Below are positions 1,704 through 51,068 of a DNA stretch of 64,000 nt, piece after piece (the first letter of the stretch is position 1; each line of letters opens with the position of its first letter). The DNA comes from Acholeplasmataceae bacterium (GTDB taxonomy: Bacteria; Bacillota_I; Bacilli_A; ML615J-28; CAG-313), in contig DUOG01000051.1 in the NCBI GenBank assembly GCA_012838945.1, positions 3,845-67,844 of the forward strand, in the 5' to 3' direction. A model generated the notes under the pieces. It was given only the letters and a program-made list of their open reading frames with translations, searched no databases and was not told the origin of the DNA. The position numbers were made by a program, and so were the translations under genes.

Positions 1704-1716
1704 AGTAGGTGAATGA

Positions 1717-2031: not shown

Positions 2032-2041
2032 GGAGGAAACT

Positions 2042-2371: not shown

Positions 2372-2375
2372 AACT

Positions 2376-20527: not shown

Positions 20528-21205
20528 ATGAAGAAAAGGTTTAAAAAGTTCTTCATTCTCGCATTAATTTTTTTAATTCCCTTATTTTTAATCAGTTTTT
20601 CTGATCGTTACTTTGGGGAACGAGCGGGGGTATATATAAAAGAAAGAGCCCAGATGTATAGTATGCAAATCATTAATGATGCTGTTTTAGAAGTGGTGGG
20701 GCCTAGTATATCAATGGATGACATCTTGATAATGGAAAAGGACACTACTGGCAAAATTATTAGTGTCTTAGTCAATACCCAACAAGTAAATCAAATCTTA
20801 GGGAAGGTTGGAAAAAGTGTAGAAGGTGGAGTTCAGGCGATTGAGGAAGGTAAAATCTCTAGTTTGAGCATCCCCCTCGGGGTTTTAATTAGTAGTACAA
20901 TTTTGGCCGATCGCGGTCCTGAAGTAAAGGTAAAGGTCCGACCAATTGGGTCCTATAAGGTTGATGTGATTTCTGAGGTTAGTGGTTATGGTATAAACAA
21001 TAGTTTAGTATTGGTCTATATCTTAGTAAAAATTGAACTGGAAGCATTGATTCCTTTGAGGATTGTCCCGGTAGTGACCGAGTCAAAAGTTGTCTTAATC
21101 TCACAAATAATTAAAGGGGAGATACCCAAATATTATTATGCTGCGGGGACATATTTGCCCAATCCTCCTCCTGAGTCTGATTTTGGCGTTATTCCTAACA
21201 GTTAA
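20528..21205 (+). CDS. Sporulation protein YunB-like
   Basis: N-terminal TM helix; IPLGVLISSTILADRGPEVKVKVRPIGS matches my recollection of the YunB family core. Confidence 0.45.
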   Translation: MKKRFKKFFILALIFLIPLFLISFSDRYFGERAGVYIKERAQMYSMQIINDAVLEVVGPSISMDDILIMEKDTTGKIISVLVNTQQVNQILGKVGKSVEGGVQAIEEGKISSLSIPLGVLISSTILADRGPEVKVKVRPIGSYKVDVISEVSGYGINNSLVLVYILVKIELEALIPLRIVPVVTESKVVLISQIIKGEIPKYYYAAGTYLPNPPPESDFGVIPNS

Positions 21206-23002: not shown

Positions 23003-23707
23003 GTGATACGGATGCGTAAACGGTTCATTTTGTTTTTAACTATTATTTTGTTAGTTACCTCAATTTTAATGACTACCTTTTTGGTTGCTAAGAAGGAAAA
23101 TTCCCAAAATGTTTTGGGTTGGAAAGAAGTCATAATCTACCTTGATCCTGGTCATGGTGGGTTTGATGGTGGCGCTATTGGAATTGATGGTACCTATGAA
23201 AAAGATATTGTTTTAAACATTTGTTTAAAGTTGGAACGTTACTTTAAACAAAGTGGTTTTAAAGTAGCTTTAACTAGGAGAACTGATGTGGCGCTCCACT
23301 CTCCAGGCAGTAAAAATGCCAAAAGAGATGATATTTATAAACGGGTTAGTTTAATCAATAAATCAAATGCTGATCTTTTTCTTACAATTCATGCTAATGC
23401 TTTTTCTAGTTCGAAAGTAAAAGGAGCCCAAGTTTTTTATAGTGATAAAAACCCTTCCTCAAAAGATTTGGCTGGTGCCATTCAAAATATGATTAGTTTA
23501 TATCATGAGAATAACCATCGTCCTTCCAAAAGTATTAGTGGAAAGTATTTGTTAGATCACGTTGAGATACCTGGTTGCCTAGTTGAAGTGGGATTTTTAT
23601 CAAATCTCGAAGACTTAGAAAATCTGAAAAATGATGAATACTTAGAAGAAATGGCTTTTATTATCTATTTAGGAGTACTACAATATTTGCATAAAAATTA
23701 TAGGTGA
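23003..23707 (+). CDS. cwlD: N-acetylmuramoyl-L-alanine amidase (Amidase_3), CwlD-like
   Basis: N-terminal TM helix; YLDPGHGGFDGGAIG...IHANAF...VEVGFLSN Zn-amidase motifs. Confidence 0.7.
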   Translation: MIRMRKRFILFLTIILLVTSILMTTFLVAKKENSQNVLGWKEVIIYLDPGHGGFDGGAIGIDGTYEKDIVLNICLKLERYFKQSGFKVALTRRTDVALHSPGSKNAKRDDIYKRVSLINKSNADLFLTIHANAFSSSKVKGAQVFYSDKNPSSKDLAGAIQNMISLYHENNHRPSKSISGKYLLDHVEIPGCLVEVGFLSNLEDLENLKNDEYLEEMAFIIYLGVLQYLHKNYR

Positions 23708-24159
23708 ATATGATGAAAAAAATATTACAAATTAAGAGCCCAGAGGAAATGATCGCTCTCGGGCAAACTATCGGAAAAAAACTTTTCCCAGGTGCCATTA
23801 TTACCTTAAATGGTGATTTGGGGGCTGGGAAAACTACTTTTACTAAAGGGATTGGACAAGCCTTGAATATCAAGGCAGTTATTAATAGTCCAACCTTTAC
23901 CATTATGAAAGTTTATCAAGGTGATTTAACTCTCTTTCATATCGATGCTTATCGTTTAGATGGAGTAGGTTCTGATTTTGATTTGGAAGAATACTTTTAT
24001 CAAGATGGAATTTGTGTGATTGAGTGGGCAGAAATCATTACTGATATCTTGCCGGAAGAGCGCCTTGATATTACGATTTCTATTACTGGCGAATCAACTA
24101 GACAAGTAATAATTGAAACAAACAATCAAGAATATCAAAAGTTAGAAGGAATATTATGA
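23704..24159 (+). CDS. tsaE: tRNA t6A37 biosynthesis ATPase TsaE
   Basis: GDLGAGKTTFTKG P-loop; operon context tsaE-tsaB-rimI-tsaD. Confidence 0.85.
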   Translation: MNMMKKILQIKSPEEMIALGQTIGKKLFPGAIITLNGDLGAGKTTFTKGIGQALNIKAVINSPTFTIMKVYQGDLTLFHIDAYRLDGVGSDFDLEEYFYQDGICVIEWAEIITDILPEERLDITISITGESTRQVIIETNNQEYQKLEGIL

Positions 24160-24743
24160 TAAATTTAGTTATTGATACATCAACGGATTATTTATATATC
24201 GCCATTATTCAAGATAATGAAGTTGTTAGCGATTATTTCGTCAAGGGTAATAATAATCATTCGGAAAATTTAATCGATGCTCTTACCAAAGTTTTAAGTG
24301 AAAAAAACTTTTTAATTGAAGACTTTGATGGAATTTATGTTGGTCGTGGTCCGGGATCTTATACTGGACTTAGAGTTAGTGGAACTGTTGCTAAAGTGTT
24401 AGCCTATTCTAAAGAAATTCCATTTTACAGTTTTAGTTCTCTTGACTTGGTGGCATCAGCTTATATCGATGTTGAAGGAAAATACTTAAGCAAAATCAAA
24501 GCTAAGAAGGGCTATCACTATGTGAAGGTCTTAAATTTTGTCAATGATCAAATCACTGAAGAGATGGCTGATTCCTATTTATCCGATGAAGCGATTGAGG
24601 AAATCATTAAAAATGATCCGACAATGATAATTATTGATGAAATTAAAAAATTTAATCCATTAGTACTCTTTAATTATGGCTTAATGACAGCGGTTGAAGA
24701 TCTTCATGCATATGTACCTAATTACTTAAGAAAGGGAATTTAA
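24156..24743 (+). CDS. tsaB: tRNA t6A37 biosynthesis protein TsaB
   Basis: YeaZ-like N-terminus (LVIDTSTD...) with a coupled start. Confidence 0.8.
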   Translation: MINLVIDTSTDYLYIAIIQDNEVVSDYFVKGNNNHSENLIDALTKVLSEKNFLIEDFDGIYVGRGPGSYTGLRVSGTVAKVLAYSKEIPFYSFSSLDLVASAYIDVEGKYLSKIKAKKGYHYVKVLNFVNDQITEEMADSYLSDEAIEEIIKNDPTMIIIDEIKKFNPLVLFNYGLMTAVEDLHAYVPNYLRKGI

Positions 24744-24744
24744 G

Positions 24745-25179
24745 ATGGAGATTCGCTTGATGAGGCCAACTGATATCGAATCAGTGATTAAAGGAGAAGA
24801 GGCTACATTGGGGGAAACTTTGGGGAAGGAATTCTTTGAACAAGAATTAACTAATCCCCTTGCTTACTTTTGGGTTGCCACCAAAAATGATGAGGTGATT
24901 GGTTATATTGGGGCTTATGTTGTTCCGCCTAGTGCGGATATCATAAGCTTCTATGTTCTCGATGCTTATCAAAAACAGGGTTATGGAAGTAAGCTAATGA
25001 CGAGGCTTCTTGATGAGTGTGGCCGACTTAAAGTTGAAGCAGTAACTCTCGAAGTAAAAGAAGGAAATAATAAAGGAATCAATTTTTATTTAAAAAATGG
25101 ATTTCAAAAAATAAATATACGTAAGCATTATTATCAAGATGGCAGTAATGCTCTGTTAATGAAAAAGGTGATTAAATGA
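24745..25179 (+). CDS. rimI: Ribosomal-protein-alanine N-acetyltransferase
   Basis: GNAT fold (QKQGYGSKLM); it sits between tsaB and tsaD. Confidence 0.8.
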   Translation: MEIRLMRPTDIESVIKGEEATLGETLGKEFFEQELTNPLAYFWVATKNDEVIGYIGAYVVPPSADIISFYVLDAYQKQGYGSKLMTRLLDECGRLKVEAVTLEVKEGNNKGINFYLKNGFQKINIRKHYYQDGSNALLMKKVIK

Positions 25180-26138
25180 TTGTATTAGGTATAGAAACTA
25201 GTTGTGATGAAACTGGGGTTGCGGTAGTAAGATCAGGTAAAGAAGTTCTTAGTAATGAAGTATTTACTCAAATAGAAATTCACAAAGCCTATGGGGGCGT
25301 AGTCCCTGAGGTTGCCAGTCGTCATCACATTGAAAAAATAACATATGTAATGGATGCAGCAATTAAAAAAGCTAACCTTACTTTTGAGGATATTGATTTG
25401 ATTGCTGTGACAGGGAATCCCGGATTAGTTGGATCCCTTATGGTGGGGATTAATGCGGCAAAAGCTGTGGCATTGGCTTATAATAAACCAATTGTCTTTG
25501 TCAATCACATCCATGGTCATATTTATGCCAATTATATTGAGGATGACTTTTTATTCCCATTGTTAGCTTTGGTTGTTTCTGGTGGACACACTGAACTAAT
25601 TTTAATGAGAGATCATTTTCAGTTTGAAATCTTAGGAGAAACCTTAGACGATGCTGTAGGTGAAGCTTATGATAAAGTGGCTCGAGTGGTTGGGGCCGGT
25701 TATCCAGGTGGACCAATAATTGATAAGATGGCTAAACAAGGCGAGGCTAGTTATGCTCTCCCTAAGATAATGCTTGATAAAGATAGTTTGAATTTTAGTT
25801 TTTCCGGCTTAAAGTCAGCGGTTATTAATTTGGTTAATAAGCACAAAATGAAAAACGAAGAGATTAATCCGAATGATCTTGCTGCAAGCTTCCAAGAAGC
25901 AGCGATCTCAGTTTTAGTGGAAAAAACCATCAAAGCCGCTACCGAACACGAAGTCAAACAAGTGGTGGTTGCTGGAGGCGTCGCCGCAAACTCTCACTTG
26001 CGTGAAGAAATGGCTCAAGCAATTAGTGCTTTGCCGGGTGTAAAACTATCAATTCCTAAAATGAAATATTGTACCGATAACGCCGCAATGATTGCAGTTG
26101 CTGGTTATTTTCAATATTTGCATGAACATAAACACTAA
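25176..26138 (+). CDS. tsaD: tRNA N6-adenosine threonylcarbamoyltransferase TsaD
   Basis: LGIETSCDETGVAV, and HxxxH (HIHGH) metal site. Confidence 0.9.
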   Translation: MIVLGIETSCDETGVAVVRSGKEVLSNEVFTQIEIHKAYGGVVPEVASRHHIEKITYVMDAAIKKANLTFEDIDLIAVTGNPGLVGSLMVGINAAKAVALAYNKPIVFVNHIHGHIYANYIEDDFLFPLLALVVSGGHTELILMRDHFQFEILGETLDDAVGEAYDKVARVVGAGYPGGPIIDKMAKQGEASYALPKIMLDKDSLNFSFSGLKSAVINLVNKHKMKNEEINPNDLAASFQEAAISVLVEKTIKAATEHEVKQVVVAGGVAANSHLREEMAQAISALPGVKLSIPKMKYCTDNAAMIAVAGYFQYLHEHKH

Positions 26139-26146
26139 TTTATTCT

Positions 26147-26173
26147 GACAGCCCTTAGTCGCTGTCTTTTTTT
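26147..26173 (+). terminator. Intrinsic terminator after tsaD
   Basis: GACAGC-ccttagtc-GCTGTC followed by T7. Confidence 0.6.
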
Positions 26174-26218: not shown

Positions 26219-26247
26219 TTGAAATAATATGCCCCTTATGTTATAAT
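26219..26247 (+). promoter_or_regulatory. Promoter TTGAAA-17 nt-TGtTATAAT for the GroEL-like operon
   Basis: Consensus spacing and an extended -10. Confidence 0.45.
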
Positions 26248-26279
26248 AAAATAAATAAAGGGGATGGGGGAAAGCAAAA

Positions 26280-26324
26280 ATGGAGAAAAATGAGAAGATT
26301 TCACAAAGATTGATTAGTCACTAA
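26280..26324 (+). CDS. 14-codon upstream ORF (MEKNEKISQRLISH) in the leader of the GroEL-like gene
   Basis: Its own G-rich SD (AAAGGGGATGGGGG) lies 9 nt upstream. Its TAA stop overlaps the second G-rich SD (cTAAGGGGTAGGGG) that serves the main ATG at 26338. Confidence 0.3.
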   Translation: MEKNEKISQRLISH

Positions 26325-26337
26325 GGGGTAGGGGCAA

Positions 26338-27906
26338 ATGACTAGCAATCTTAAATTTAATAAAGAAGCACGCGAATCAATGGTTCAAGGGATAAAAAAA
26401 ATCTATGATGCAGTGAGGATAACCTTTGGTCCTAAGGGACGCAATGTTATTATTGATGAAGCCTATGGTCCACCGCTCATCATCAATGATGGTGCTACCA
26501 TTGCACGCTCAATAAACCTGTCTAATAGATGGGAAAACTTAGGTTCTAGTTTAATTATCGAAGCAGCTTCCAAAACGAATGAATTGGTTGGTGATGGAAC
26601 GACTACGGCCATCATATTAGCATCTGTCTTGATCTTTGAAGGATTGAAGAAAGTTGAAAAGGGAGTTAATCCAGTTCATTTGAAAAACGGACTTGATTAC
26701 TTGTTACCACTTATCATTCAGATGATTGATGATCAAAAGATTATGCTGAGTAGTAGGGATGATTTGCTTAATATAGCGATTAACTCATCGAATGACCAAG
26801 ATATCAGCAAGTTAATTCTTCAAGCATTAGATGAAGTAGGAGCTGACGGATTAATTAATATTTTAGAATCGAATGATGCTTGGACTCATCTAGAAATAAC
26901 CAAAGGATATCGATTTGACCGAAGTTATGTGTCACCTTATATGGCTAGTGATCAAGAAAAGATGCAAACCATTCTGGAACGCCCCCTAATCTTAATTACT
27001 AATAAAAAGATTAGTTTACTAACAGATATTTTGTGGGCATTAGAAACAGCAGTGGAAAAGGGATATCCTTTACTGATAATTTGTGATGACATTGACCAAG
27101 AAGTAATAAGCTCCATAATTATAAATAACTTAAATGGTGTGTTTAATGTTGTAGTAGTGAAAGCTCCAAGTTTTGGTGAATATCGTGATGCTCTGCTTCA
27201 AGACCTCAGCATCTTAACAGGTGCTGCGTTTCTCAATGAAAACTCGCTGGGTTCAGCTCAAAAAGTAATCATTCAAAAAGAACATACTACCATCATCGAT
27301 GGATGTGGTCTTGATGAAGAACTTGAAACACACCTTCGCTCACTAAAACATCAATTAGATTATGCTAATCAATTGGAAAAAGGGAAAATAAAAACTCGGA
27401 TTGCTAAACTGACAAGTGGAATTGCTTTAATAAAAGTAGGCGCAGCAACAGATATAGAACTTCAAGAAAAAAAGTTAAAATATGAAGATGCCTTAAATGC
27501 CACCAAATCTGCTCTTAAAGATGGAATTGTTGAAGGTGCTGGGAAGGTCTTTTATCTCATAGGTAAGAGGCTAGACAACCTACATATTAATTCTGATTAT
27601 CAAGATGCTAAAGCAATTATGTCAGTGACTTTAAAAGCACCCTTTCATCAAATTGTTGAAAATGGTGGTTATCATCTGGATGCCATCATCCACGATCTAA
27701 CTGATGAATTATGGTTTGATGCCTTGACCGGTGAAAAATGTTTGCTGAGGGATCGAGGAATCATCGACCCAGTTCAAGTCCTCAAAACATCTTTAATGAA
27801 TGCGGTTAGCATTGCTTCAATGTTTTTAACTACCGAATGCGCAATAATCCTTAAAAATATAGATAAAACCATAGATAAAACAATCAATGAGGAGAATCTG
27901 CTATAA
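26338..27906 (+). CDS. Divergent GroEL/Cpn60-family chaperonin paralog, with no GroES partner and no C-terminal Gly-Gly-Met tail
   Basis: Colinear with GroEL: LKFNKEAR~DVKFGNDAR, TFGPKGRNVIID, VGDGTTTA, KAPSFGEYRDALLQD, VGAATDIELQEKK, GIIDPV. GGG414-416 has become GAG, and the protein ends ...NEENLL. No CIRCE inverted repeat lies upstream. Confidence 0.8.
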   Translation: MTSNLKFNKEARESMVQGIKKIYDAVRITFGPKGRNVIIDEAYGPPLIINDGATIARSINLSNRWENLGSSLIIEAASKTNELVGDGTTTAIILASVLIFEGLKKVEKGVNPVHLKNGLDYLLPLIIQMIDDQKIMLSSRDDLLNIAINSSNDQDISKLILQALDEVGADGLINILESNDAWTHLEITKGYRFDRSYVSPYMASDQEKMQTILERPLILITNKKISLLTDILWALETAVEKGYPLLIICDDIDQEVISSIIINNLNGVFNVVVVKAPSFGEYRDALLQDLSILTGAAFLNENSLGSAQKVIIQKEHTTIIDGCGLDEELETHLRSLKHQLDYANQLEKGKIKTRIAKLTSGIALIKVGAATDIELQEKKLKYEDALNATKSALKDGIVEGAGKVFYLIGKRLDNLHINSDYQDAKAIMSVTLKAPFHQIVENGGYHLDAIIHDLTDELWFDALTGEKCLLRDRGIIDPVQVLKTSLMNAVSIASMFLTTECAIILKNIDKTIDKTINEENLL

Positions 27907-28844
27907 TGAATTATGTCGTTGATATTTTAGTTGTTATCTTTTTACTTTTCATCGTTCTATATGCCTTGAAACAAAGGACTTCTAAATATTTGGTAGTCTT
28001 TATCACCTACTTTTTACCGATGGTTGTGGTGTTTCTTTTGGGGAGCCCACTATACCTTAATTGGATAAGTAAGTCTTCGGTTAGTTCAAAGTTTCAAGAT
28101 ATATTTGCGAGTAGTTATTATTTAAGTGGTTATATAACAACTGAAATAATCTTCTATATAATTTTAGTTATTGTTTTAAAGTTTACTGTTTATCTTTTTA
28201 AAAAAACAAGTTTAATTGCTGATGTAACAAAAGCAAAGAAAAAGAAAATATATGTCAATTTAATATTGGCATTAATTCTGGGATATTTTTATGCCGCCGT
28301 CTTAGTCGGGGCATTATATCCACTTGGGTTAACGAGTGAAAATACTCTTCTAGAAAATATATATCAAAATACAATCTTAATTGACCTCAATGAAACAAAT
28401 CAGTTAAATCAATACATCCAAGTCTATGAGTCGATTGTAGAGATTAAAGAGATCTTAGCCTTAGATGAAGATGATCCAAACTTTATCAAAATCGTAAGTG
28501 AATATGCGAAAGACCAAGGTCCCAGACTTCAAAGACGTGTCCAAGTCTTCTTGGAAGCATGTGAGGGATCTAGTGGGTCACCATTAAACTATTTTGTTGA
28601 ACAAAAGATTATTAAACCATACTCAAAATTTATCGTAAAAAAACAAGTAGTACGCAATGTGATCAGTGAACGGGTTATTGAAGATGATTTGTTTAGCGAA
28701 ATCATTTTTAAAAACTGGGTTCAAAAATATCAGATTGATTTAAGGAATATCAGTGACAATGATCAAAGCAATTTAGATAGCGCCCTTCAGAAGTTAAAAC
28801 TAACTAAGGAGGCAGCTGAAAAACTAGGAGCGTATTGGAAGTAA
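27906..28844 (+). CDS. Membrane protein with four TM helices (possibly CvpA-like) and a ~170-aa C-terminal soluble domain
   Basis: The ATG overlaps the GroEL-like stop (TAATG). TM helices at roughly aa 5-22, 28-50, 75-97 and 115-140. Confidence 0.4.
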   Translation: MNYVVDILVVIFLLFIVLYALKQRTSKYLVVFITYFLPMVVVFLLGSPLYLNWISKSSVSSKFQDIFASSYYLSGYITTEIIFYIILVIVLKFTVYLFKKTSLIADVTKAKKKKIYVNLILALILGYFYAAVLVGALYPLGLTSENTLLENIYQNTILIDLNETNQLNQYIQVYESIVEIKEILALDEDDPNFIKIVSEYAKDQGPRLQRRVQVFLEACEGSSGSPLNYFVEQKIIKPYSKFIVKKQVVRNVISERVIEDDLFSEIIFKNWVQKYQIDLRNISDNDQSNLDSALQKLKLTKEAAEKLGAYWK

Positions 28845-28856
28845 CGAGGTGAGCTT

Positions 28857-29834
28857 ATGGATCGTGAAATCGATTTAACCCAAATAAGTAAGTTTTCTCA
28901 AAAAGTTAAAAAGTCAGTAATTGTCGATAAAGAGATAATTGCTGATGAAGTGATGGTTGATAAGGTCCATCAATTTAGTGAGGAGAAATATGATCAAATC
29001 ACCCAAACCCTCAAAGTGAATCCTTTCATGCCTAAAGAAGGAACCACTGAATTTGAGGTCATTAGTATTGATGAATACTATTTTACTTATAAAAATGAAA
29101 CAATGAACCTTAGAGGGGTTATTACAAATAATAACTTAACTAAAGGGGAAAAGAAAAAAATAATCAAGTATGTCTTTAAAAATTGGATTAAAGATTATCG
29201 AAAACTCGAACGAGAATCAACCATTTCTATTAAAGAACAGTTGAGTTTGTTAGAGGATGTGAAATATAAAAGATTTTCAATTTTGTTAATCCTTTTATTT
29301 GTGATAATCTTTTTCATCAATACTTTGTTATTCTTTTCTAATAACTTACTTATTGATTCACCCATCTTCCTAAAAGCAAATATGAGAATTAATGAGACAC
29401 TAACTAATAATCCTGTCTTAGAAAAGTTAACTGCTGTTATGTTGGTCTTGAACTTTTTGATGATTGCTTTTGGGATTTATCACAATAAGGTGTTAAAAGA
29501 ATACCGTAAGCAATATTTGCTTTCCAAACAAAATGTTAATGAACTGTATACCAATATGAAAAGAGCTTTTTTGGGGAAAGCCCGAAAAGCACGCCGTTAT
29601 TACTTAAGAGCTTATAAGAAGAAAAACTATAAGCCTTATCCGATTAAAAAAATTGATTTAGAAGAATATAGTATTGATAATGTCTTAAAATATGCACAGG
29701 TAGCAACCATTCACACTGCTCATTTTAAGAAAATATCAAGTCGTTTTAAAGGGGTTCGCATGGCACTTCTATGGGGAGGAAGTGGCATGATAATAGCATA
29801 TTATATCTATCTGATGATTTCAATCTTTCTATAA
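28857..29834 (+). CDS. Membrane protein: a ~140-aa soluble N-terminal domain followed by three TM helices and a K/R-rich loop
   Basis: Hydropathy pattern and RBS GAGGTGAG. I recognised no family. Confidence 0.35.
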   Translation: MDREIDLTQISKFSQKVKKSVIVDKEIIADEVMVDKVHQFSEEKYDQITQTLKVNPFMPKEGTTEFEVISIDEYYFTYKNETMNLRGVITNNNLTKGEKKKIIKYVFKNWIKDYRKLERESTISIKEQLSLLEDVKYKRFSILLILLFVIIFFINTLLFFSNNLLIDSPIFLKANMRINETLTNNPVLEKLTAVMLVLNFLMIAFGIYHNKVLKEYRKQYLLSKQNVNELYTNMKRAFLGKARKARRYYLRAYKKKNYKPYPIKKIDLEEYSIDNVLKYAQVATIHTAHFKKISSRFKGVRMALLWGGSGMIIAYYIYLMISIFL

Positions 29835-29846
29835 GGAGGGGCCAAG

Positions 29847-31430
29847 ATGGAAAATTCAAACTTAAACCGTCAAAGGGAATTAGAAGAAGCGCTAGCCCGA
29901 AAGGAACAAGAACTAAAGAAACTAGAAACTCGGGTTAATGAATTAGAAAGTAAGTTGTTAAATAAGGGGGCAAATACTGACGACTTACTAAAGTATTATC
30001 TTAACAAATATGATAGTTACTATGATGAAATAATTCAACTATGCGAAGAAGAGCGGGCACAAAGCAAAAAGAAATTAGAAAAAGAAATTGAAGAATTACA
30101 AAAAGCAAAAAGCGAAGCAGAGAACTTACTTAAGAAAAACGAAGTTCATCAACAAAACATTGAAAAATTAACTAACCAAAATACAGAAGTTAAAAATAAG
30201 ATTACTGCTGCTATGGATCAGAAAAATCAAGCGGTTGATGAGTTTTTAAAAGATATTAATCAAATGAATTTTGAGACTGATCAGATGTATCTAAATGTGC
30301 TTTCTCAGTTTAATGATGCTATTAATAGTCGAATAAGTTTTGATGAATTATTTGAACATTTAGACCTTTACCAAACTTATTTAGAAACAAAAGGTTTTGA
30401 CAAGGCACAGGAAATCAAAAAGTGTCATGAGAAATTAAAGGAAAGTCAGACCGAAATTGATCAAGAAATTGAAAAGCTAGAGGACAAACTAGAAAGTCTA
30501 AAAGTTCAGATTGAACAAGAAAAAACCCAACTAATTGATACTAATATTTTTGATATCGAAGATCAGTTGTTTAATAAACAGTCAACCTATCAAGATTTTG
30601 ATAAGCAGAGTGATAAAATATGTAATAAGTTTGCTGGTCTTAAAAATAGACATCACAATAATTTTAAGGATGTTTTATATAAGTTAAAGTTATACAACTA
30701 CGCCCCAGCAGAAATAGGCCGTGAGTTTGAGAAACTACTTGACTTGTTTGTTCAAGAACTCAATATGGTTGATGGTGATGATTATGAATTGCGTCAGCGT
30801 GAGATAGCGTCATTGAAAGAACGGATTGATCAAATCGAAAAAGAAAAAGTGGAGCTTCCAGCGCTTGAAGAAGAACTCAAAGAACTTCAGAGCACCTATA
30901 GTAAAGCCCATGCTGAGATTACAGAAATGGAACGCTATATCGCCAAATGTAATCCGTTAATTGAACCATCATCAAGATATTATGAGTGGTATGTATCGTT
31001 AAAAGCGTTACAGGATAAGATGAATAGACTGGCTGAAGAAAAAGAAGAACAAACAAATTATATTAAAGAATTATATCGCGAACGAAAAAAACTTGTTTAT
31101 GATCCGTTTGCTAAGGATAGTTTAAAAAGCTTAGATGAAAAGATTTTATCTGAAGAGGCTAAACTACAGACAATTATGACCTCAATTGATGATACGATGA
31201 CTGTTTGGAAGACGATTGATAACAATCCTGAACAAGCTCGTTTTAAGAGTATCATTAATCAGAAAACAAAATTTGAGGATCGTTTGCCTGTCCTTTATCA
31301 AAGCCTCAATGAGTTAAAACAAGTTATTGATGAAAAATATAATAAAGTTACCGAAATTAAAGAAAGAGTGGTAACTTTAGATCGATTATATGAGGAGATA
31401 GGAAATTTAGAAAATGAAGATAATAATTGA
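29847..31430 (+). CDS. Long coiled-coil protein (527 aa)
   Basis: RBS GGAGGGG. Heptad-rich E/K/Q/L sequence throughout, with no TM helix and no NTPase motif. Confidence 0.45.
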   Translation: MENSNLNRQRELEEALARKEQELKKLETRVNELESKLLNKGANTDDLLKYYLNKYDSYYDEIIQLCEEERAQSKKKLEKEIEELQKAKSEAENLLKKNEVHQQNIEKLTNQNTEVKNKITAAMDQKNQAVDEFLKDINQMNFETDQMYLNVLSQFNDAINSRISFDELFEHLDLYQTYLETKGFDKAQEIKKCHEKLKESQTEIDQEIEKLEDKLESLKVQIEQEKTQLIDTNIFDIEDQLFNKQSTYQDFDKQSDKICNKFAGLKNRHHNNFKDVLYKLKLYNYAPAEIGREFEKLLDLFVQELNMVDGDDYELRQREIASLKERIDQIEKEKVELPALEEELKELQSTYSKAHAEITEMERYIAKCNPLIEPSSRYYEWYVSLKALQDKMNRLAEEKEEQTNYIKELYRERKKLVYDPFAKDSLKSLDEKILSEEAKLQTIMTSIDDTMTVWKTIDNNPEQARFKSIINQKTKFEDRLPVLYQSLNELKQVIDEKYNKVTEIKERVVTLDRLYEEIGNLENEDNN

Positions 31431-32076
31431 CCAACAAATTAAAGCGTTAGTTCCCGAATTTAATATTATAGCTCATGAAATGGATGTCGTGGTTACCAAG
31501 ACTGAAGCAGTTCAAGAACTGATTAAGGAAACCGAAAAAGAGTTACAAGTAAAATATACGATTGAAGATGTCATCCATATCCCTACTATCAAAGAAGGTC
31601 GGGATGGCTATAAAAAGTTTGGGAAAGACCCAAGTCGATATCGGTTGGCAGTTGAGTCACTGTATCGACGGATTGTGAAAAACTATAATTTGTACTCAAT
31701 TAATGACGTCGTTGATATTGGTAATATCTTATCGATTCGAACAATGAGAAGTACTGCCATCCTTGATTATAATCAAATCATGGGTGACGTCTTAGTGCGA
31801 CTGGGCACTGCCGATGATGACTATGAAGGAATCAACCGGGGAAAAATTAATGTGGAAAACATTCCTGTTTATGTTGATGATCTAGGTCCTTTTGGTAGTA
31901 CCACCAGTGACACCATCAGAACTAGTATTACTGATGAGACAACTAAAATCTTAGTGTTAATAATTTGCTTTAGTAATGAAAATATCGAATCAAATATTAA
32001 TGAAATGACTGAATTATACACAAAATATTGTAATGCACAAAATATTAGACGGATAGAAGTCAAAAGCGAGGAATAG
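31414..32076 (+). CDS. B3/4 (tRNA-binding-like) domain protein
   Basis: DPSRYRLAVESLYRRIVKNYNLYSINDVVDIGNILSI matches my recollection of the stand-alone B3/B4 family core. Confidence 0.55.
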   Translation: MKIIIDQQIKALVPEFNIIAHEMDVVVTKTEAVQELIKETEKELQVKYTIEDVIHIPTIKEGRDGYKKFGKDPSRYRLAVESLYRRIVKNYNLYSINDVVDIGNILSIRTMRSTAILDYNQIMGDVLVRLGTADDDYEGINRGKINVENIPVYVDDLGPFGSTTSDTIRTSITDETTKILVLIICFSNENIESNINEMTELYTKYCNAQNIRRIEVKSEE

Positions 32077-32079
32077 AAA

Positions 32080-33720
32080 ATGATTGAAACTTCAAACTTT
32101 ATTAAGACAATTGTAAAAAATGATCTTGAGTCAGGAAAGGTAGAAAAAGTAATTACTCGTTTTCCACCTGAGCCCAATGCTTACCTCCATATTGGACATG
32201 CTAGGGCGATAATCAATAATTTTGAAATAGCTAAAGAGTTTAATGGTTATACCAACTTAAGATATGATGATACCAATCCAGCTCAAGAAGATGTGGAATT
32301 TGTCGAAGCAATTGAGCGAGATATTAGATGGCTAGGTTATGAACCAAAGAATATCTTTCATGGTTCTGACTATTTTGAAAAGACATATGAAAAGGCTGTA
32401 TTACTAATTAAAAAAGGATTGGCTTACGTTGATGATTTAAGTCAAGAAGAAATTAGTAAATACCGCGGAACTTTAACAGAACCGGGCAAGAACTCACCTT
32501 ACCGTGATCGTAGTGTTGAAGAAAATTTAAGGCTTTTTGAAGCAATGCGAAATGGTGAATTCAAAGAAGGGGAAAAAGTTCTTCGTGCTAAAATTGATAT
32601 GGCCAGCCCAAATATGAATATGCGCGATCCAGTCTTATATCGTATTATGTACATCAGTCACCACCAAACAAAAGACAAGTGGTGTATATATCCGATGTAT
32701 GACTTAGCTCATCCATTACAAGATGCCTTCGAAGGAATTACTCATTCTCTTTGTAGTTTGGAATATGAAGATCACCGCCCACTTTATGATTGGGTAGTCG
32801 AACATTGTGAGACTGAACATAAGCCACAACAAATCGAATTTGGTCGCTTAAGTATTACTAATACGATTATGAGTAAACGCTACTTAAGAAAATTAGTTAC
32901 TGAAAATCATGTTAAAGGTTATGATGATCCACGCATGCCAACTTTAGTTGGACTTAGACGTCGTGGCTTTACTCCTGAATCCATCAAAGCATTTATTTTA
33001 TCAACAGGTTTATCAAAAACTAATTCAGTGGTAGATTATGCGATGCTTGAGCATTTCTTAAGAGAAGACCTTAAACTAAAGGCAGAACGCCGTATGGCGG
33101 TACTTGATCCACTAAAAGTAGTAATTACAAATTATCCAGAAGGACAAATTGAATATTTAGACGCTGAAAACAATTCGGAAAATAGAGAATTGGGTACACG
33201 TAAAATTGCTTTCTCAAGAAATATTTATATCGAACGAGAAGACTTCTTACCAGAAAAACCAAATAAACATTGGAAACGTCTTTCTAAAGATATTGAAGTT
33301 CGTTTATACAATGCTTACTTTATTAAATGTACCGAAGTCTTTTATGATGAAAATGGAGAAATTACTCACATTCATGCTACTTATGATCCGGAAACTAAGA
33401 GTGGTAGTGGCTTCAATGCCAGAAAGCCTAATGGAACTATTCACTTTGTTGAATGTTCAACCGCAGTTCCGGCGACATTCAACTTATTTGAACCATTAAT
33501 TTTAGGTGATGACATTACTCCAGAAAACTTCATCGAAAACCTTAATCCAAACTCATGGAGTGTTCAAAAAGGTTTTGTGGAAGCAAGCTTAGCTAAGGTT
33601 AAACCAGAAGAAAGATTCCAATTTTTACGAAATGGTTATTATATTTGTGATAATGATTCAACTGAAAATAATTTAATTTTTAATCGGACTGTTGGTTTAA
33701 AGTCTTCCTTTAAGGTGTAG
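32080..33720 (+). CDS. glnS: Glutaminyl-tRNA synthetase
   Basis: [18 protein letters not shown] (HIGH) and VMSKR-like IMSKR. Both the length (546 aa) and the C-terminal beta-barrel anticodon-binding domains are those of GlnRS rather than GluRS. Confidence 0.8.
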
Positions 33721-33727
33721 GTGCAAG

Positions 33728-35833
33728 ATGGTTAACGAAAATATCTTAGCCGGCCTTAATCCGCAACAAATTGAAGCGGTTACTCATAAAGATGGACCGA
33801 TTATGGTGTTTGCGGGGGCGGGTACCGGCAAAACTAAAACCTTAACTTCTCGAGTTGCTTATTTGATTAAAAATGAAGGTATTAATCCTTGGAACATCTT
33901 AGCGATAACCTTCACTAAGAAAGCAACCAAAGAGATGAAAGACCGATTAGAAAAAATGCTAGGGTTTTCATCTAACCTAAATATCGATACAATTCATGCG
34001 ATGTGTGCCAAGATTTTACGGAGGCATATTGATCGTTTAGGATATAGTCGATCCTTCATTATCATTGATGAAGATGAATCATTAAAAATTATTAATCAAA
34101 TCTATAAAGATAAAAATATTGATCGAAAAAGATTAACTCCAAAAACTTCTCTAAATATGATAGGGGCTTTTAAAAACAATCAAAGTGAGTTAATTGGTCA
34201 AGTAAAAGATATTTATGATTGGTATCAAGAAGAATTACAATTTCAAAATTTAGTTGATTTTGATGATTTACTTATCTTAACGGAAAAACTCTTTGTTGAG
34301 CATCCAGATGTGCTAAAGTATTATCAAGATCGTTTCCACTATATCTTAGTTGATGAATTTCAAGATACCAATGTAGTTCAATACAATATTATTAAAATGC
34401 TAGCAAGTGACTCACGTAACTTATTTGTGGTGGGCGATGATGACCAAAGTATTTATCGTTTTCGGGGTGCTACGGTTGAAAATATGTTTCAATTTGAAAA
34501 AGACTTTCCGGAAAGAAAAAAGGTCGTGTTAGAACAAAACTATCGCTCATCTAATACGATTCTAAAAGGCGCCAATCGATTAATCAATAATAACCAAAAG
34601 CGTCAAACTAAAGAATTGTATAGTAGCATTGAAGGTCAAGTAAGTGATGTTGTTTATGTTGATAACTATAATCAAGATGAAGAAGCACGGTATGTTGCTG
34701 GAGAAATTAAGCGATTAGTTAAATCAGGTTATCAATATGAAGATATTGCTGTCCTATATCGAACCAACGTTATAAGTCGCATCTTTGAGCTTTGTTTCAT
34801 TGAAGAACGTATTCCTTATCATCTTTATGGAGGGTTCTCCTACTTAAAGCGCAAAGAAATCAAAGATATCATTAGTTATTTTGGTTTTATTATTGATCCA
34901 ACTAGTGTCTATCACTTCAGTCGAATCATTAATCAACCAAGTCGTGGTATTGGTGAAAAGACAGTAAATAAAATAGTTGAACATGCCAAGAAAAACTTTA
35001 TAAATATTTTTGATGCGATTGTTGATTTACAAGATACTTTCCCTCAAGGGAAAAAAGAAGAACTCTTTAATTTCAAAAGTATGATTGAAGACTTCCAAGT
35101 TAAAATTGAAGAAATGACTCTTCCTGAGTTCTTTGATTATATGCTTGAAACCAGTGGTTATTTAGCAGTCTTAATCAGTGAAGATCAAGCTGAAGTAAAC
35201 CGAGTAGAAAATGTTAAGGAGTTTAAATCAATCTTAGTCCAAATTGATGAAGAATATGATGGGTATAGTCAGACTGAAAAAATAAAGTTTGGCTTTGATG
35301 AGTTAATCTTAAGTGATACCAATCAGGTTGACGAAGATAAGAAAAATCAAAAAGGGGTTGTCTTATCAACCGTCCATTCCGTCAAAGGACTAGAATTTAA
35401 AGTTGTTTTTGTGGTAGCCTTAGAAGAAGGAATTTTCCCTAATCATCTATCGTCTACTGAACCAGAAGAATTAGAAGAAGAACGTCGGGTTGCTTATGTT
35501 GCTTTTACCCGTGCTAAAGAAAAAATATACTTATCTTGTGCTTATAGACGTTTAATCTATGGGCGCTATCTAAACAATAAAAAATCACGCTTCTTCTTAG
35601 AATATATCGGCACCATTGATGAAACACCAAAGGTGACTGAAAGACCGGATGAAAAAGAAGAAACTGAGGCAACTGATAATCAACAATTAAAAATTGGTGA
35701 TCAAGTTGTTCATAAAAACTTTGGTGATGGGATAGTTATTGCTACTGATCCAATGTTTGTTCAAGTTATCTTTTTAAGTGATAAAAAATCAAGAAAATTA
35801 CTTGCTGGTCATCCAGCCTTAAGAAAAAAGTAA
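33728..35833 (+). CDS. pcrA: ATP-dependent DNA helicase PcrA/UvrD
   Basis: AGAGTGKTKTLT Walker A and the UvrD motifs (DEFQDTN, VGDDDQSIY, QNYRS, VHSVKGLEF, VAFTRA). Confidence 0.9.
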   Translation: MVNENILAGLNPQQIEAVTHKDGPIMVFAGAGTGKTKTLTSRVAYLIKNEGINPWNILAITFTKKATKEMKDRLEKMLGFSSNLNIDTIHAMCAKILRRHIDRLGYSRSFIIIDEDESLKIINQIYKDKNIDRKRLTPKTSLNMIGAFKNNQSELIGQVKDIYDWYQEELQFQNLVDFDDLLILTEKLFVEHPDVLKYYQDRFHYILVDEFQDTNVVQYNIIKMLASDSRNLFVVGDDDQSIYRFRGATVENMFQFEKDFPERKKVVLEQNYRSSNTILKGANRLINNNQKRQTKELYSSIEGQVSDVVYVDNYNQDEEARYVAGEIKRLVKSGYQYEDIAVLYRTNVISRIFELCFIEERIPYHLYGGFSYLKRKEIKDIISYFGFIIDPTSVYHFSRIINQPSRGIGEKTVNKIVEHAKKNFINIFDAIVDLQDTFPQGKKEELFNFKSMIEDFQVKIEEMTLPEFFDYMLETSGYLAVLISEDQAEVNRVENVKEFKSILVQIDEEYDGYSQTEKIKFGFDELILSDTNQVDEDKKNQKGVVLSTVHSVKGLEFKVVFVVALEEGIFPNHLSSTEPEELEEERRVAYVAFTRAKEKIYLSCAYRRLIYGRYLNNKKSRFFLEYIGTIDETPKVTERPDEKEETEATDNQQLKIGDQVVHKNFGDGIVIATDPMFVQVIFLSDKKSRKLLAGHPALRKK

Positions 35834-35862: not shown

Positions 35863-38611
<2,749 letters not shown>

Positions 38612-38737: not shown

Positions 38738-41554
38738 ATGGCTGATGATAAAATTATTATAAAAGGGGCTCGAGAGAATAATTTAAAGAATATTGATCTT
38801 GAACTACCTAGAGGAAAATTCATCGTTATGACGGGCCTATCGGGCTCAGGCAAAACATCATTAGCTTTTGATACCATTTATGCTGAAGGGCAAAGACGCT
38901 ATGTGGAAAGCTTATCGGCCTATGCTCGGATGTTTTTAGATAATGTTGATAAACCTGATGTTGATTTAATAGAAGGTTTGTCACCAGCAATTTCTATTGA
39001 TCAAAAGACTACCAATCGAAATCCTCGATCAACAGTGGGAACTGTTACTGAAATATATGATTATTTAAGATTGTTATATGCTCGAATTGGACATCCAGTT
39101 TGTCCGACTCATGGTGTTGAAATATCAAGTCAAACTATTGAACAAATGGTAGACCGGATTTTTAACTATCCGCTTGAATCAAAAGTGGTTATATTAGCAC
39201 CGGTTGCTGAGAACAGAAAAGGAACTTTTGAGAAGACTTTTGAAATATTAAGAAAAGATGGTTATTCAAAAGTTATGGTTGATGGCGAGATGCTTGATTT
39301 GAGTGAAGAGATCAAATTACAAAAAAATCTTAAGCATAATATTCTAGTTGTCATTGACCGTTTCCGTTTACGTGAAGATATTCGTTCTAGGCTTTACGAA
39401 TCAATTGAAACCGGATTACAATTATCTGATGGTAAAATATATGTAGAAATTGAGGATGAAAGGCTTCTCTTTAGTGAAAAGTTTAGTTGTCCTCATTGCG
39501 ATTTTACTGTCAGTAAGTTAGAACCTGCGATGTTTTCTTTTAACTCCCCTCTGGGAGCTTGTCCAGAGTGTAAAGGTTTAGGGTTCTTAAGTGCTGTCAG
39601 TGAAGACTTACTAGTTCCTGATGATAATTTATGTATCGCTGAGGGGGCTATTCGTTATTTAAAAAATATTATCTTTACCGATAATATTGAATGGCAAATG
39701 TATCGAACATTGTTTGAGTATTATAATATTGATTTATATACGCCTTATAAACTTTTATCTGATGAAGAAAAGAAGATAATAATGTATGGTTCATTAGAGC
39801 CAATTGATTATCAGATTACATCGTCTGGTGGCGTAACTTTCAAAAGAAATAAACCAATTGAAGGAGTAGCTTCCTTAATTCAAAGACGTTATTATGAGAC
39901 TAATTCTTCAATGTCAAAAGATTATTATAGTTCCTTCATGAAAGACGTTACTTGTTCAGTTTGTGAAGGAAAGCGATTATCTAGAGAAAGTTTAAGTGTT
40001 CAAATAAATGGTAAAAATATTATTGATTTTACCGAAATGTCAATTACCCAAGCATCAGACTTTATTAACAATTTAACGTTATCACCATTAGAAGCACAAA
40101 TAAGTAGATTAATTGTTAAAGAAATAAAAGAACGATTACAATTCTTAAAGAATGTCGGATTGGATTATTTAACCCTCTCCCGCTCTGCAGCAACCCTTTC
40201 GGGTGGTGAGGCTCAAAGGATACGATTAGCTACCCAAATTGGTTCGAGTTTGACTGGGGTACTCTATGTCCTTGATGAACCATCAATTGGCCTTCATCAA
40301 TCAGATAACAGTAAACTTATCAAAACCTTAAAACAAATGAGAGACCTAGGTAATACCGTTATTGTTGTTGAGCATGATGAAGAGACGATGATGGAAAGTG
40401 ATTATTTAGTTGATATTGGACCAGGTGCTGGTGTCCATGGTGGTTATGTGGTAGCCGCTGGGACTCCAAGTGAAGTAATGCAAGCCGAAAACTCTATCAC
40501 TGGTGATTATCTTTCTGGACGAAAGAAAATCGAAGTGCCAAAGGTACGCCGTGAGGGTAATGGCTTATCACTAAAATTGGTTAATTGTCGGGCCAATAAT
40601 TTAAAAAATATTGATGTAGAAATTCCATTACAAAAGCTAACGGTTGTTACTGGGGTAAGTGGTAGTGGTAAATCAACCTTAGTTAATGATATCTTATATA
40701 ATGGTTTAGCTAAAAGACTTTATAAATCCAAAGGTGAGGTTGGGGCTCATGATGAGATTATTGGTAGGGAGTTTATCGAACACCTAGTGAATGTTGACCA
40801 AGCACCAATTGGTAGGACTCCACGTTCCAATCCAGCCACTTATACCGGAGTGTTTGATCATATCAGAGATTTGTTTGCTGAGACGATTGAGGCTAAAAAA
40901 CGAGGCTATACTAAAGGTCGTTTCTCCTTCAATGTTAAAGGTGGAAGATGTGAGTCATGTCGCGGTGATGGTATTATCCGCATAGCAATGCACTTTTTAC
41001 CAGATGTATATGTGCCTTGTGATGCATGTAAAGGTAAACGATATAATCGTGAGACCTTGGAAGTTAAATATCGAGGGTTAACAATATCTGATGTTTTAAA
41101 TCTAACAGTTGAAGAAGCTTGTGAATTCTTCGAAAATATTCCGAGTATTTATAACAAACTAAAAACTTTGAATGATGTTGGTTTAAGTTATATTAAACTT
41201 GGTCAAAGTTCCACAACTCTATCTGGTGGTGAAGCTCAAAGGGTGAAACTAGCCAGTGAACTTCATAAACGGGTAACCGAAGCGTCCCTCTTCATCTTTG
41301 ATGAACCAACGACTGGACTTCATACCGAAGACATCAAGAAACTTCTGGCTGTGATCAATCGCATTGTCGATATGGGGGCAACTGTAGTAATTATTGAGCA
41401 TAATTTAGATGTTATTAAATCAGCTGACCACATTATTGACCTTGGACCACGTGGTGGTGACTTTGGCGGTGAGGTTATTTGTGTCGGCACACCAGAAGAA
41501 GTAAGCCAATGTGAAGCATCATTGACGGGACAATATTTAAAAAAAGTTTTATAA
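38738..41554 (+). CDS. uvrA: Excinuclease ABC subunit A
   Basis: Two ABC modules (GLSGSGKTSL; GVSGSGKSTL), LSGGEAQR signatures and Zn-finger cysteines. Confidence 0.95.
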   Translation: MADDKIIIKGARENNLKNIDLELPRGKFIVMTGLSGSGKTSLAFDTIYAEGQRRYVESLSAYARMFLDNVDKPDVDLIEGLSPAISIDQKTTNRNPRSTVGTVTEIYDYLRLLYARIGHPVCPTHGVEISSQTIEQMVDRIFNYPLESKVVILAPVAENRKGTFEKTFEILRKDGYSKVMVDGEMLDLSEEIKLQKNLKHNILVVIDRFRLREDIRSRLYESIETGLQLSDGKIYVEIEDERLLFSEKFSCPHCDFTVSKLEPAMFSFNSPLGACPECKGLGFLSAVSEDLLVPDDNLCIAEGAIRYLKNIIFTDNIEWQMYRTLFEYYNIDLYTPYKLLSDEEKKIIMYGSLEPIDYQITSSGGVTFKRNKPIEGVASLIQRRYYETNSSMSKDYYSSFMKDVTCSVCEGKRLSRESLSVQINGKNIIDFTEMSITQASDFINNLTLSPLEAQISRLIVKEIKERLQFLKNVGLDYLTLSRSAATLSGGEAQRIRLATQIGSSLTGVLYVLDEPSIGLHQSDNSKLIKTLKQMRDLGNTVIVVEHDEETMMESDYLVDIGPGAGVHGGYVVAAGTPSEVMQAENSITGDYLSGRKKIEVPKVRREGNGLSLKLVNCRANNLKNIDVEIPLQKLTVVTGVSGSGKSTLVNDILYNGLAKRLYKSKGEVGAHDEIIGREFIEHLVNVDQAPIGRTPRSNPATYTGVFDHIRDLFAETIEAKKRGYTKGRFSFNVKGGRCESCRGDGIIRIAMHFLPDVYVPCDACKGKRYNRETLEVKYRGLTISDVLNLTVEEACEFFENIPSIYNKLKTLNDVGLSYIKLGQSSTTLSGGEAQRVKLASELHKRVTEASLFIFDEPTTGLHTEDIKKLLAVINRIVDMGATVVIIEHNLDVIKSADHIIDLGPRGGDFGGEVICVGTPEEVSQCEASLTGQYLKKVL

Positions 41555-50919: not shown

Positions 50920-51068
50920 AAAATACCTCCTTAATTTCTCGTTATTATTTTGACATATTATATTAAAAATATACATTATCGCCCTTGATAAATAATTGTT
51001 TTGTTAATCATTTATAGAATAATTTTATATAATTGTCATATTATTTATTGAAAGTCAAGAGGTGGAGT

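Follow-up and report, generated by a model that had tools for sequence, protein, structure and literature searches.

The 64-kb stretch of DNA analysed here (the window) comes from an uncultured low-GC member of the Bacilli of anaerobic digesters that carries the NCBI label 'Acholeplasmataceae bacterium'. Within it we examined a groEL gene that has no groES beside it and that heads a row of genes for two membrane proteins (m1 and m2), a long helical protein (cc) and a protein with a B3_4 domain. The GC content of this region is 33–35% and the + strand holds almost all of the genes. The core of the locus is listed below by position in the window, with lengths in nucleotides (nt) or amino acids (aa); related loci, where they need to be told apart, are given by number (L001, L002 and so on).

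23704–26138, + strand: tsaE-tsaB-rimI-tsaD operon, directly upstream of the groEL locus
25176–26138, + strand: tsaD, from the list of open reading frames (ORFs); PF00814 was assigned to the homologues in L002 and L013, which are 67–71% identical to the window protein
26147–26166, + strand: hairpin and T-run like an intrinsic terminator at the end of the tsaD operon (6-bp stem with 4 GC pairs, then TTTTTTTATT)
26219–26247, + strand: sigma-70-type promoter, TTGAAA-17-TATAAT with an extended –10 TG (11 of 12 consensus matches)
26248–26337, + strand: groEL leader of 90 nt, occupying the place of the groES ORF
26257–26266, + strand: AAAGGGGATG, a putative vestigial groES ribosome-binding site (RBS) and start codon, from alignment of the promoter region with relatives
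26338–27906, + strand: groEL, 522 aa, fast-evolving and without groES (profile matches, tree and rate tests)
27906–28844, + strand: m1, 312 aa, orphan membrane protein
28857–29834, + strand: m2, 325 aa, orphan membrane protein
29847–31430, + strand: cc, 527 aa, all-helical, without a transmembrane (TM) segment
31414–32076, + strand: B3_4 protein (PF03483, E = 1.8e-14), overlapping cc by 17 nt and ending 3 nt before glnS

The groEL product (HHU80445.1) matched the Cpn60 family PF00118 colinearly over residues 22–504 with 181 bits (cut-off 34.3) and passed two GroEL subfamily models, NF009487 (518.9 bits, cut-off 352) and NF000592 (517.6 bits, cut-off 397). These matches bear out a preliminary description of this DNA, which had reported a 522-aa protein colinear with GroEL and keeping the GDGTTTA nucleotide motif. 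The cut-off of the equivalog model TIGR02348 (582.1 bits) was missed both by the window protein (521.8 bits) and by that of L001 (531.9 bits). Scores with this model form a gradient from 678 bits in the outgroup through 573–624 bits in the groES-bearing members of the family to 522–532 bits in the window and L001.

The ATP-site residues T30, G32, P33, D52, D87–T91, D398, G414, G416 and D495 are intact in the window GroEL. At positions 414–416 it reads GAG where GGG is expected (G415A), which was seen in this protein only; further changes are E386D, L31F and D83E, as well as I150N, which is also found in L001. The apical hydrophobic positions Y199, S201, Y203, F204, L234, L237, L259, V263 and V264 read Y, S, Y, M, L, L, I, I and I. 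Y199, S201, Y203 and L237 are thus unchanged, and the residues at L234, L259, V263 and V264 are either retained or conservatively substituted. The protein ends in ...INEENLL, without GGM repeats. The missing GGM tail does not set the window gene apart: it is also missing from the five groES-bearing family members that were aligned and from the outgroup protein P0098.

Public collections contain exact copies of the GroEL, m1, m2, cc and B3_4 proteins of the window, and contigs of this species reach 1,525,981 bp, the longest of them encoding identical m1 and B3_4. The window GroEL is 41–42% identical to the GroELs of Bacillus and Staphylococcus. Its nearest proteins are GroELs of 513–534 aa in about 90 clusters, with 45–57% identity, from metagenome-assembled genomes (MAGs) labelled 'Bacilli bacterium' or 'Acholeplasmataceae bacterium'. 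Scanning a genome collection with 8-mers specific to the window GroEL returned only four unrelated canonical groELs. A HAD_2 match inside GroEL was dismissed since it fell below its cut-off. We also rejected P0002, P0004 and P0069 (909, 784 and 711 aa) as relatives; these are canonical GroELs with internal assembly duplications.

Gene order and the upstream region

We compared the locus contexts of ten family members and the window, which makes 11 genomes. In nine of the ten relatives fetched (L002/L003, L004, L011, L012, L013, L017, L018) a groES of 78–83 aa lies directly upstream of groEL, and a profile search identified these small upstream ORFs as GroES. Gene order in these nine is groES-groEL-(m1-m2)-cc-B3_4-glnS-pcrA-(hydrolase)-ligA-uvrA, the last two being seen where the locus extends that far, and the length of cc is 504–535 aa. 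The tenth relative, L001, carries the same five genes as the window (groEL, m1, m2, cc and B3_4) and is likewise without a groES ORF. In the outgroup (P0098/L014), groES encodes 93 aa and groEL 536 aa, and there are two copies of the controlling inverted repeat of chaperone expression (CIRCE); unrelated genes follow its groEL after a gap of 170 nt.

Upstream of the locus, tsaD is present in the window, L002 and L013. It is 6–8 kb distant in L002 and L013. In the window tsaD is the immediate upstream neighbor, abutting the groEL promoter, and therefore there is no room for groES. The interval between tsaD and groES is variable; relatives have genes for a Na+-pumping oxaloacetate decarboxylase or a P-type cation ATPase in it (L011:2280–5555, L013:1291–5231, L002:2048–4660, L018:3920–6532), and genes of the same kinds lie elsewhere in the window (oadA/oadB at 312–3509 and a Ca-ATPase at 47974–50664).

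In a neighbor-joining tree of GroEL sequences the family forms one long-stemmed clade within the Bacilli, beside sequences of the Erysipelotrichaceae type. The window protein and P0003 (L001) are sisters in this tree and have the longest branches. A tree of GlnRS and B3_4 has the topology ((W,L001),L002), where W is the window, and the tips of W and L001 are short. Because the window gene occupies the same locus as groES-groEL of nine relatives and keeps their groES promoter, gene order indicates that it is no extra copy but the lineage's own positional groEL ortholog at the family's groESL locus. The preliminary description had called it a paralog. This cannot be maintained, as the gene occupies the canonical locus behind the family's groES promoter and scored only 199 bits with the chlamydial paralog model NF038369 (GroEL3_Chlamy) and 114.7 bits with NF038370 (GroEL2_Chlamy), both of which have cut-offs of 600.

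No groES was found in the window by tblastn or by a six-frame hidden Markov model (HMM) search with --max. As a control, the six-frame GroES search scored L002 at E = 2.6e-34. A GroES-like match at 53570–53668 in the tblastn and HMM searches was due to chance and belongs to the C-terminus of an ABC-transporter ATPase.

The promoter at 26219–26247 was the top-scoring site in a 14-kb scan and lines up with the groES promoters of L002, L004, L012, L013, L017 and L018. In most of the seven relatives' groES upstream regions we observed a TTGAAA-like –35 element, 17 nt, TGnTATAAT, an A-rich spacer of about 10–20 nt, a Shine–Dalgarno (SD) sequence and ATG. The window and L001 match this architecture exactly and end in AAAGGGGATG at the position of the groES start; the distance from AAAGGGGATG to the –10 hexamer is that of the groES SD and ATG in the relatives. 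The ORF that follows AAAGGGGATG has 9 codons in the window and 20 codons in L001, and then come the SD and start codon of groEL. The window and L001 are nearly identical through the promoter and the first ~40 nt of the leader, despite saturated synonymous sites. The conserved start of the leader (AAAGGGGATGGGG..CAAAATGGAGAAAAAT; window 26248–26337, L001:60–131) has no conserved small ORF and could be a regulatory element.

These data suggest that AAAGGGGATG is a vestige of the groES RBS and start codon, and the simplest reading is an in-place deletion of the groES ORF in an ancestor shared by the window species and L001. The retained promoter and the vestigial SD and ATG argue against a simple relocation of groES, and we infer that groES is absent from the whole genome.

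The GroES of this family is a miniature (78–83 aa) without the roof beta-hairpin and with a shortened mobile loop. It scores 21–32 bits against NCBIfam cut-offs of about 100, several of these proteins have no precomputed Pfam match, and groES genes of this family are likely missed in MAG annotation. The miniature groES genes are at L002:7736–7987, L004:7757–8008, L011:8754–8990, L012:8757–8999, L013:8751–8996, L017:1391–1633 and L018:7751–7993.

CIRCE (TTAGCACTC-N9-GAGTGCTAA) was not found in the window or in any family locus when up to 4 mismatches were allowed; in the outgroup L014, which served as positive control, the scan recovered both copies ahead of groES. The absence of CIRCE is common to all related genomes carrying groES and is not special to the window gene. 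Thus, the lack of an adjacent co-chaperonin, of CIRCE and of a GGM tail, and GAG in place of GGG, all of which had been pointed out before, were confirmed in the sequence.

Rate of change and constraint in GroEL

Between the window and L001, GroEL is only 57–58% identical, with 89% for GlnRS, 80% for PcrA, 80% for B3_4, 71% for m2, 68% for cc and 54% for m1. In the groES-bearing pair L004–L012, GlnRS is 86% identical and GroEL 69%. We applied Tajima's relative-rate test to the window and L002 with L013 as outgroup and counted unique changes. GroEL had 101 such changes in the window and 33 in L002 (chi2 34.5), and with L001 replacing the window the counts were 103 and 32 (chi2 37.3). By contrast, the controls from the window and L002 were unbiased, with 52 and 41 changes in GlnRS (chi2 1.3), 29 and 35 in TsaD (chi2 0.6) and 63 and 61 in cc (chi2 0.0). 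GroEL has therefore evolved about three times faster than in the sister lineage. Changes in GroEL are evenly divided between the window and L001 (59 and 54), and therefore the acceleration continues on both branches.

The apical domain, about one-third of the protein, holds 47 of the 102 lineage-specific GroEL changes. An apical deletion near E. coli positions 304–316 covers 11–13 aa in the window and 4 aa in L001. We also looked at the 100 alignment columns in which 115 other GroELs are at least 95% conserved. Of these columns, 10 are changed in the window and 14 in L001, compared with a family mean of 1.3 and a maximum of 7. The near-invariant positions changed in both are L23I, V54A, P235W, K266N and R268N/Q. 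Going by established structures, we place P235W, K266N and R268N/Q within or next to helices H and I, which form the groove where substrates and the mobile loop of GroES bind. Among the 117 GroELs compared, that of the window is the fastest-evolving.

This acceleration bears on a different explanation, in which groES, or a horizontally acquired canonical groESL, lies elsewhere in the genome and the window GroEL still cycles with a co-chaperonin or is redundant. A threefold acceleration seen in GroEL only, together with remodeling of the apical domain (P235W, K266N, R268N/Q and the 11–13-aa deletion), is the prediction from loss of the partner, and the promoter with its vestigial SD and ATG indicates deletion in place and not transposition. 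Orphan groEL genes served by a distant groES do occur, as in mycobacterial cpn60.2 and chlamydial GroEL2/3; the DNA inspected here amounts to 64 kb, and apical helices H and I retain their hydrophobic residues, all of which speaks for this explanation. However, the scores of 115 and 199 bits with the chlamydial GroEL2/3 models (against 600) do not favor a redundant copy of that kind, and a profile search of limited recall for family-type GroES in 5.8 billion proteins, run with five queries, found 114 GroES of which none was on contigs of the window species or L001. On balance, we consider it unlikely that a groES at another site serves this GroEL.

If groES was deleted in place, the remaining groEL could have been kept or could be decaying. 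Between the window and L001 the nonsynonymous divergence (dN) of groEL is 0.341 and the synonymous divergence (dS) is saturated at >2, so that dN/dS is at most ~0.15, which with saturated synonymous sites is an upper bound and not an estimate. The dN of groEL is 4.3 times that of GlnRS. There are at least 12 full-length GroEL variants of the window species. Truncated GroEL was found only on ENA contigs of 31,813 and 31,111 bp, where m1, m2 and cc are also fragmented (P0155, P0156, P0160, P0174, P0175, P0178, P0185 and P0193 are fragments on those contigs). We rejected these truncated GroEL, m2 and cc as pseudogenes and ascribe them to a frameshift-rich assembly, since all genes there are split. 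Within the species, one strain comparison gave 5 nonsynonymous and 4 synonymous differences in groEL, which are too few to decide.

These comparisons indicate that the groEL ORF is intact and still under purifying selection and that it is not a pseudogene. The opposite interpretation, that groEL is a non-functional relic on its way to becoming a pseudogene, at a stage before the groEL fragments of 16SrIII phytoplasmas, would account for its rank as the fastest of 117 GroELs, its 10–14 changes (counting L001) at near-invariant positions, G415A, E386D, the apical deletion and the five-to-four count within the species, and loss of GroE is common in related bacteria (PMC4221730; PMC13245659). Yet the ORF has stayed intact in two species whose GroELs differ by 42% and in at least 12 strain variants, the truncated copies are confined to contigs with assembly errors, dN is far below the saturated dS, the catalytic residues are untouched, and promoter, leader and SD are conserved. 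A relic therefore seems improbable to us. As it stands, the window protein is a member of the GroEL family that scores below the equivalog cut-off and has no groES partner at its locus, and it may represent either a co-chaperonin-independent type or a late stage of erosion as in Mollicutes.

Downstream genes

The run of genes behind groEL, m1, m2, cc and B3_4 continues on the same strand into genes of translation and DNA repair.

32080–33720, + strand: glnS, glutaminyl-tRNA synthetase (GlnRS; PF00749, PF03950 and PF20974 on homologues in all related loci; 89% identity to L001)
33728–35833, + strand: pcrA/uvrD-type helicase (UvrD-helicase and UvrD_C on orthologues; 80% identity to L001)
35863–36633, + strand: alpha/beta-hydrolase, also found between pcrA and ligA in L012 and L013
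36575–38611, + strand: ligA, NAD-dependent DNA ligase (DNA_ligase_aden, OB and BRCT domains on orthologues)
38738–41554, + strand: uvrA, excision-repair ATPase, last gene of the conserved syntenic block (UvrA domains on orthologues in L004, L012 and L013)

The listed TTG start of ligA overlaps the hydrolase gene by 59 nt (36575–36633), and an in-frame ATG 11 codons downstream is a likelier start. Gaps from groEL to pcrA range from –17 to +12 nt and the gap between ligA and uvrA is 126 nt. The groEL stop overlaps the m1 start in TAATG at 27904–27908, and a scan found no terminator-like site on the + strand between 26166 and 36773. These signals suggest that groEL is co-transcribed with the genes downstream. 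A transcript running into glnS-pcrA-ligA had been proposed earlier; the tight spacing and the lack of a terminator before 36773 agree with this, and co-transcription itself is a prediction from these signals.

Hydrophobic segments number four in m1, three in m2 and none in cc. In m1, four N-terminal TM helices are followed by a helical cytoplasmic domain of ~170 aa. In m2, a soluble N-terminal region of ~140 aa precedes two TM helices, a basic linker and a C-terminal TM helix. Homologues of m1 were found only in L001 (54% identity) and L002-type genomes (28%), and those of m2 only in L001 (71%) and L002 (27%); when metagenomes were searched with an m2 alignment, the sole match was to a contig of the same species. 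Searches with m1, m2 and cc against Pfam, NCBIfam and PDB sequences gave no match beyond coiled-coil noise. We rejected a CvpA-like identity for m1.

In all 11 genomes cc is the next gene after groEL or, where m1 and m2 are present, after groEL-m1-m2. In L004, L011, L012 and L013 the stop of groEL and the start of cc overlap, and in L017 and L018 cc starts 15–27 nt past that stop; altogether the cc start overlaps the stop of the preceding gene in 6 of 11 genomes. The AF2 model of cc (pLDDT 86) is helical throughout, with ten long helices, and Foldseek found nothing at E < 0.1 among PDB structures. At least five homologues were seen among the matches listed in a profile search. Database names such as 'chromosome segregation ATPase / SbcC' for cc reflect coiled-coil composition only: the best scores with SMC/Rad50 models of NCBIfam were 24–37 bits (cut-offs 300–730), confined to coiled-coil stretches, and no Walker A/B ATPase heads were found flanking the coiled coil. 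Staygreen and tropomyosin/ATG17 matches were below cut-offs and were dismissed.

GlnRS is uncommon in Firmicutes, which mostly use GatCAB. The B3_4 protein is present in all 11 genomes (PF03483, 54 bits, cut-off 29.3), and in the window and all ten related loci its gene overlaps cc at the 3' end of the latter and adjoins glnS. The protein matched CtdA, a canavanyl-tRNA deacylase, weakly (9f7e, E = 0.0032 over 52 residues). Because of its constant position beside glnS, the sequence data suggest that B3_4 has a role in tRNA editing unrelated to GroEL, possibly as a trans-editing factor linked to GlnRS. Standalone B3/4-domain proteins function as a family in aminoacyl-tRNA deacylation and editing (PMC10018355; PMC12449066).

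The preliminary description had taken GroEL and its neighbors for a specialised Cpn60-derived module tied to the membrane. It was right about the four TM segments of the first membrane protein and about the order of a second membrane protein, a 527-aa coiled-coil protein and a B3/4 protein; the CvpA-like identity failed on the profile and fold match. Such a module, in which GroEL, m1, m2 and cc would form a dedicated membrane-tethered machine that has no need of GroES, could explain why the groEL stop overlaps the next gene or lies within 27 nt of it in 11 of 11 genomes, why cc comes after groEL in every genome examined and why, among the matches listed, no homologue of m1, m2 or cc belongs to a genome without a GroEL of this family. 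When co-occurrence of the five genes across genomes was checked, however, groEL-cc-B3_4 was found in all 11 genomes and m1 and m2 were missing from 8 of them. Of the three genomes with m1 and m2, L002 also has groES, and therefore the arrival of the membrane genes predates, and is independent of, the loss of groES; the two are separate events. The tight spacing runs on through the functionally unrelated B3_4, glnS and pcrA, and the fact that glnS, pcrA, ligA and uvrA keep the same tight order indicates that adjacency reflects the synteny of the lineage. The rate of cc is unchanged (63 vs 61) while GroEL accelerates, which gives no visible signal of co-evolution, and neither m1 nor cc has a recognisable interaction or lid-like domain. 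We regard a dedicated membrane machine as quite unlikely. Another possibility is that cc is itself a lineage-specific chaperonin partner, acting as an adaptor or, in the subclade with m1 and m2, as a tether through them, and that it made GroES dispensable in the window lineage. If true, group I chaperonins would have a co-factor of a novel type, but we regard this as highly unlikely.

Interpretation and comparison with known systems

Together, these data make it reasonably likely, in our view, that the window gene is the lineage's own groEL, which lost groES by deletion in place and became accelerated yet stayed intact, and that the genes downstream are lineage-specific neighbors. The ancestral state of the family would have been a GroES of 78–83 aa without CIRCE or a GGM tail, with groESL joined without a terminator to cc-B3_4-glnS-pcrA-ligA-uvrA. 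One subclade would then have gained m1-m2 between groEL and cc. Later the groES ORF would have been deleted in the ancestor of the window species and L001, and the promoter with the vestigial RBS and ATG would have stayed and now drive groEL directly. Freed from GroES, GroEL may have evolved about three times faster, chiefly in the apical domain that binds GroES and substrate. Selection would still hold the ORF, the residues of ATP binding and hydrolysis and the hydrophobic binding residues. A protein of this kind might work as an ATP-driven bind-and-release chaperone without an encapsulating lid, expressed constitutively from the sigma-A promoter together with the downstream genes.

Some points weigh against this interpretation. 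A groES or a second canonical groESL may lie in the rest of the ~1.5-Mb genome, outside the window, and the recall of the GroES profile search is limited because it relies on shared 5-residue words. The few differences within the species (5 vs 4) are compatible with quite weak constraint, the counts being tiny. In most genomes the stop of groEL overlaps the gene that follows, and this conserved arrangement may yet reflect a functional link. Continued chaperone activity without GroES is a prediction from the conservation of residues.

Compared with groES-groEL of Bacilli such as Bacillus subtilis, the window groEL is alike in its full-length group I sequence, its ATP-site and apical hydrophobic residues and its location downstream of tsaE-tsaB-rimI-tsaD. 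In B. subtilis, groESL lies near the same operon. The window differs in having no groES, CIRCE or GGM tail and in scoring below the TIGR02348 cut-off, and its groEL has no terminator after it, overlaps the next gene and runs into a housekeeping array. The preliminary description had held that this does not look like a housekeeping chaperonin. We agree to the extent that the window GroEL is probably not a textbook GroES-dependent chaperonin.

The orphan paralogs, chlamydial GroEL2/GroEL3 and mycobacterial Cpn60.2, are likewise divergent and without an adjacent groES. They coexist with a canonical groESL, whereas the window gene is found at the canonical locus itself. Giant phages encode GroEL homologues, such as the single-ring chaperonin of phage AR9, that work without a co-chaperonin (PMC9598537). 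As GroEL-family ATPases without a groES gene these may be functional analogs of the window protein. However, they are phage-encoded, form their own sequence group and have been characterised experimentally, whereas the window gene is chromosomal and appears to descend vertically from a GroES-dependent ancestor.

Loss of GroE has occurred repeatedly in Mollicutes and Acholeplasmataceae, including Acholeplasma oculi and the 16SrIII phytoplasmas (PMC4221730; PMC13245659; PMC5810989). In 16SrIII phytoplasmas groEL fragments persist and there is no groES remnant (PMC13245659). GroES was present in all 13 GroEL-positive mollicutes surveyed, and that survey reports no stage at which groES is gone and groEL still intact (PMC5810989). 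The window lineage resembles the 16SrIII phytoplasmas with their groEL pseudogenes in being a related, reduced-genome, low-GC lineage with weakened constraint on the chaperonin. It differs in that its groEL is full-length, has a conserved promoter and appears to be under purifying selection in two species, and in that the host looks like a spore-former and not a wall-less parasite.

Other genes of the window concern this host. Genes of sporulation and germination lie at 20528–21205, 23003–23707 and 51033–52073, with matches to YunB (127 bits, cut-off 111.9), to a CwlD-like amidase (197 bits, just below the cut-off of 221.6) and, weakly, to a GerS-like lipoprotein. The host is probably a walled spore-former, to judge from these genes, and its family label is loose. 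At 10325–12301 there is a 658-aa Clp/Hsp100-type ATPase, which ClpA and ClpB models matched over their first 400–450 positions, far below cut-offs; it is possibly a short or unusual member of the Clp chaperones, and GroE is atypical in this genome as well. A 177-aa protein at 16673–17206 gave ankyrin-repeat-type matches to models of Legionella Ank effectors, far below cut-offs, which is unusual for a free-living digester bacterium.

A practical lesson from this locus is that what had looked like a membrane module is conserved gene order and not a demonstrated function. The analysis also documents an uncultured family in which GroES is miniaturised and groESL is joined to genes of translation and DNA repair. 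As a rule, GroEL and GroES are retained or lost as a pair; here an intact GroEL that seems to be under selection outlives groES in two diverged species. With groES-bearing relatives as controls, this would be a natural experiment on what a group I chaperonin can do without its lid and on which parts of GroEL owe their conservation to GroES only. On the latter question, the surplus of apical changes already gives a hint.

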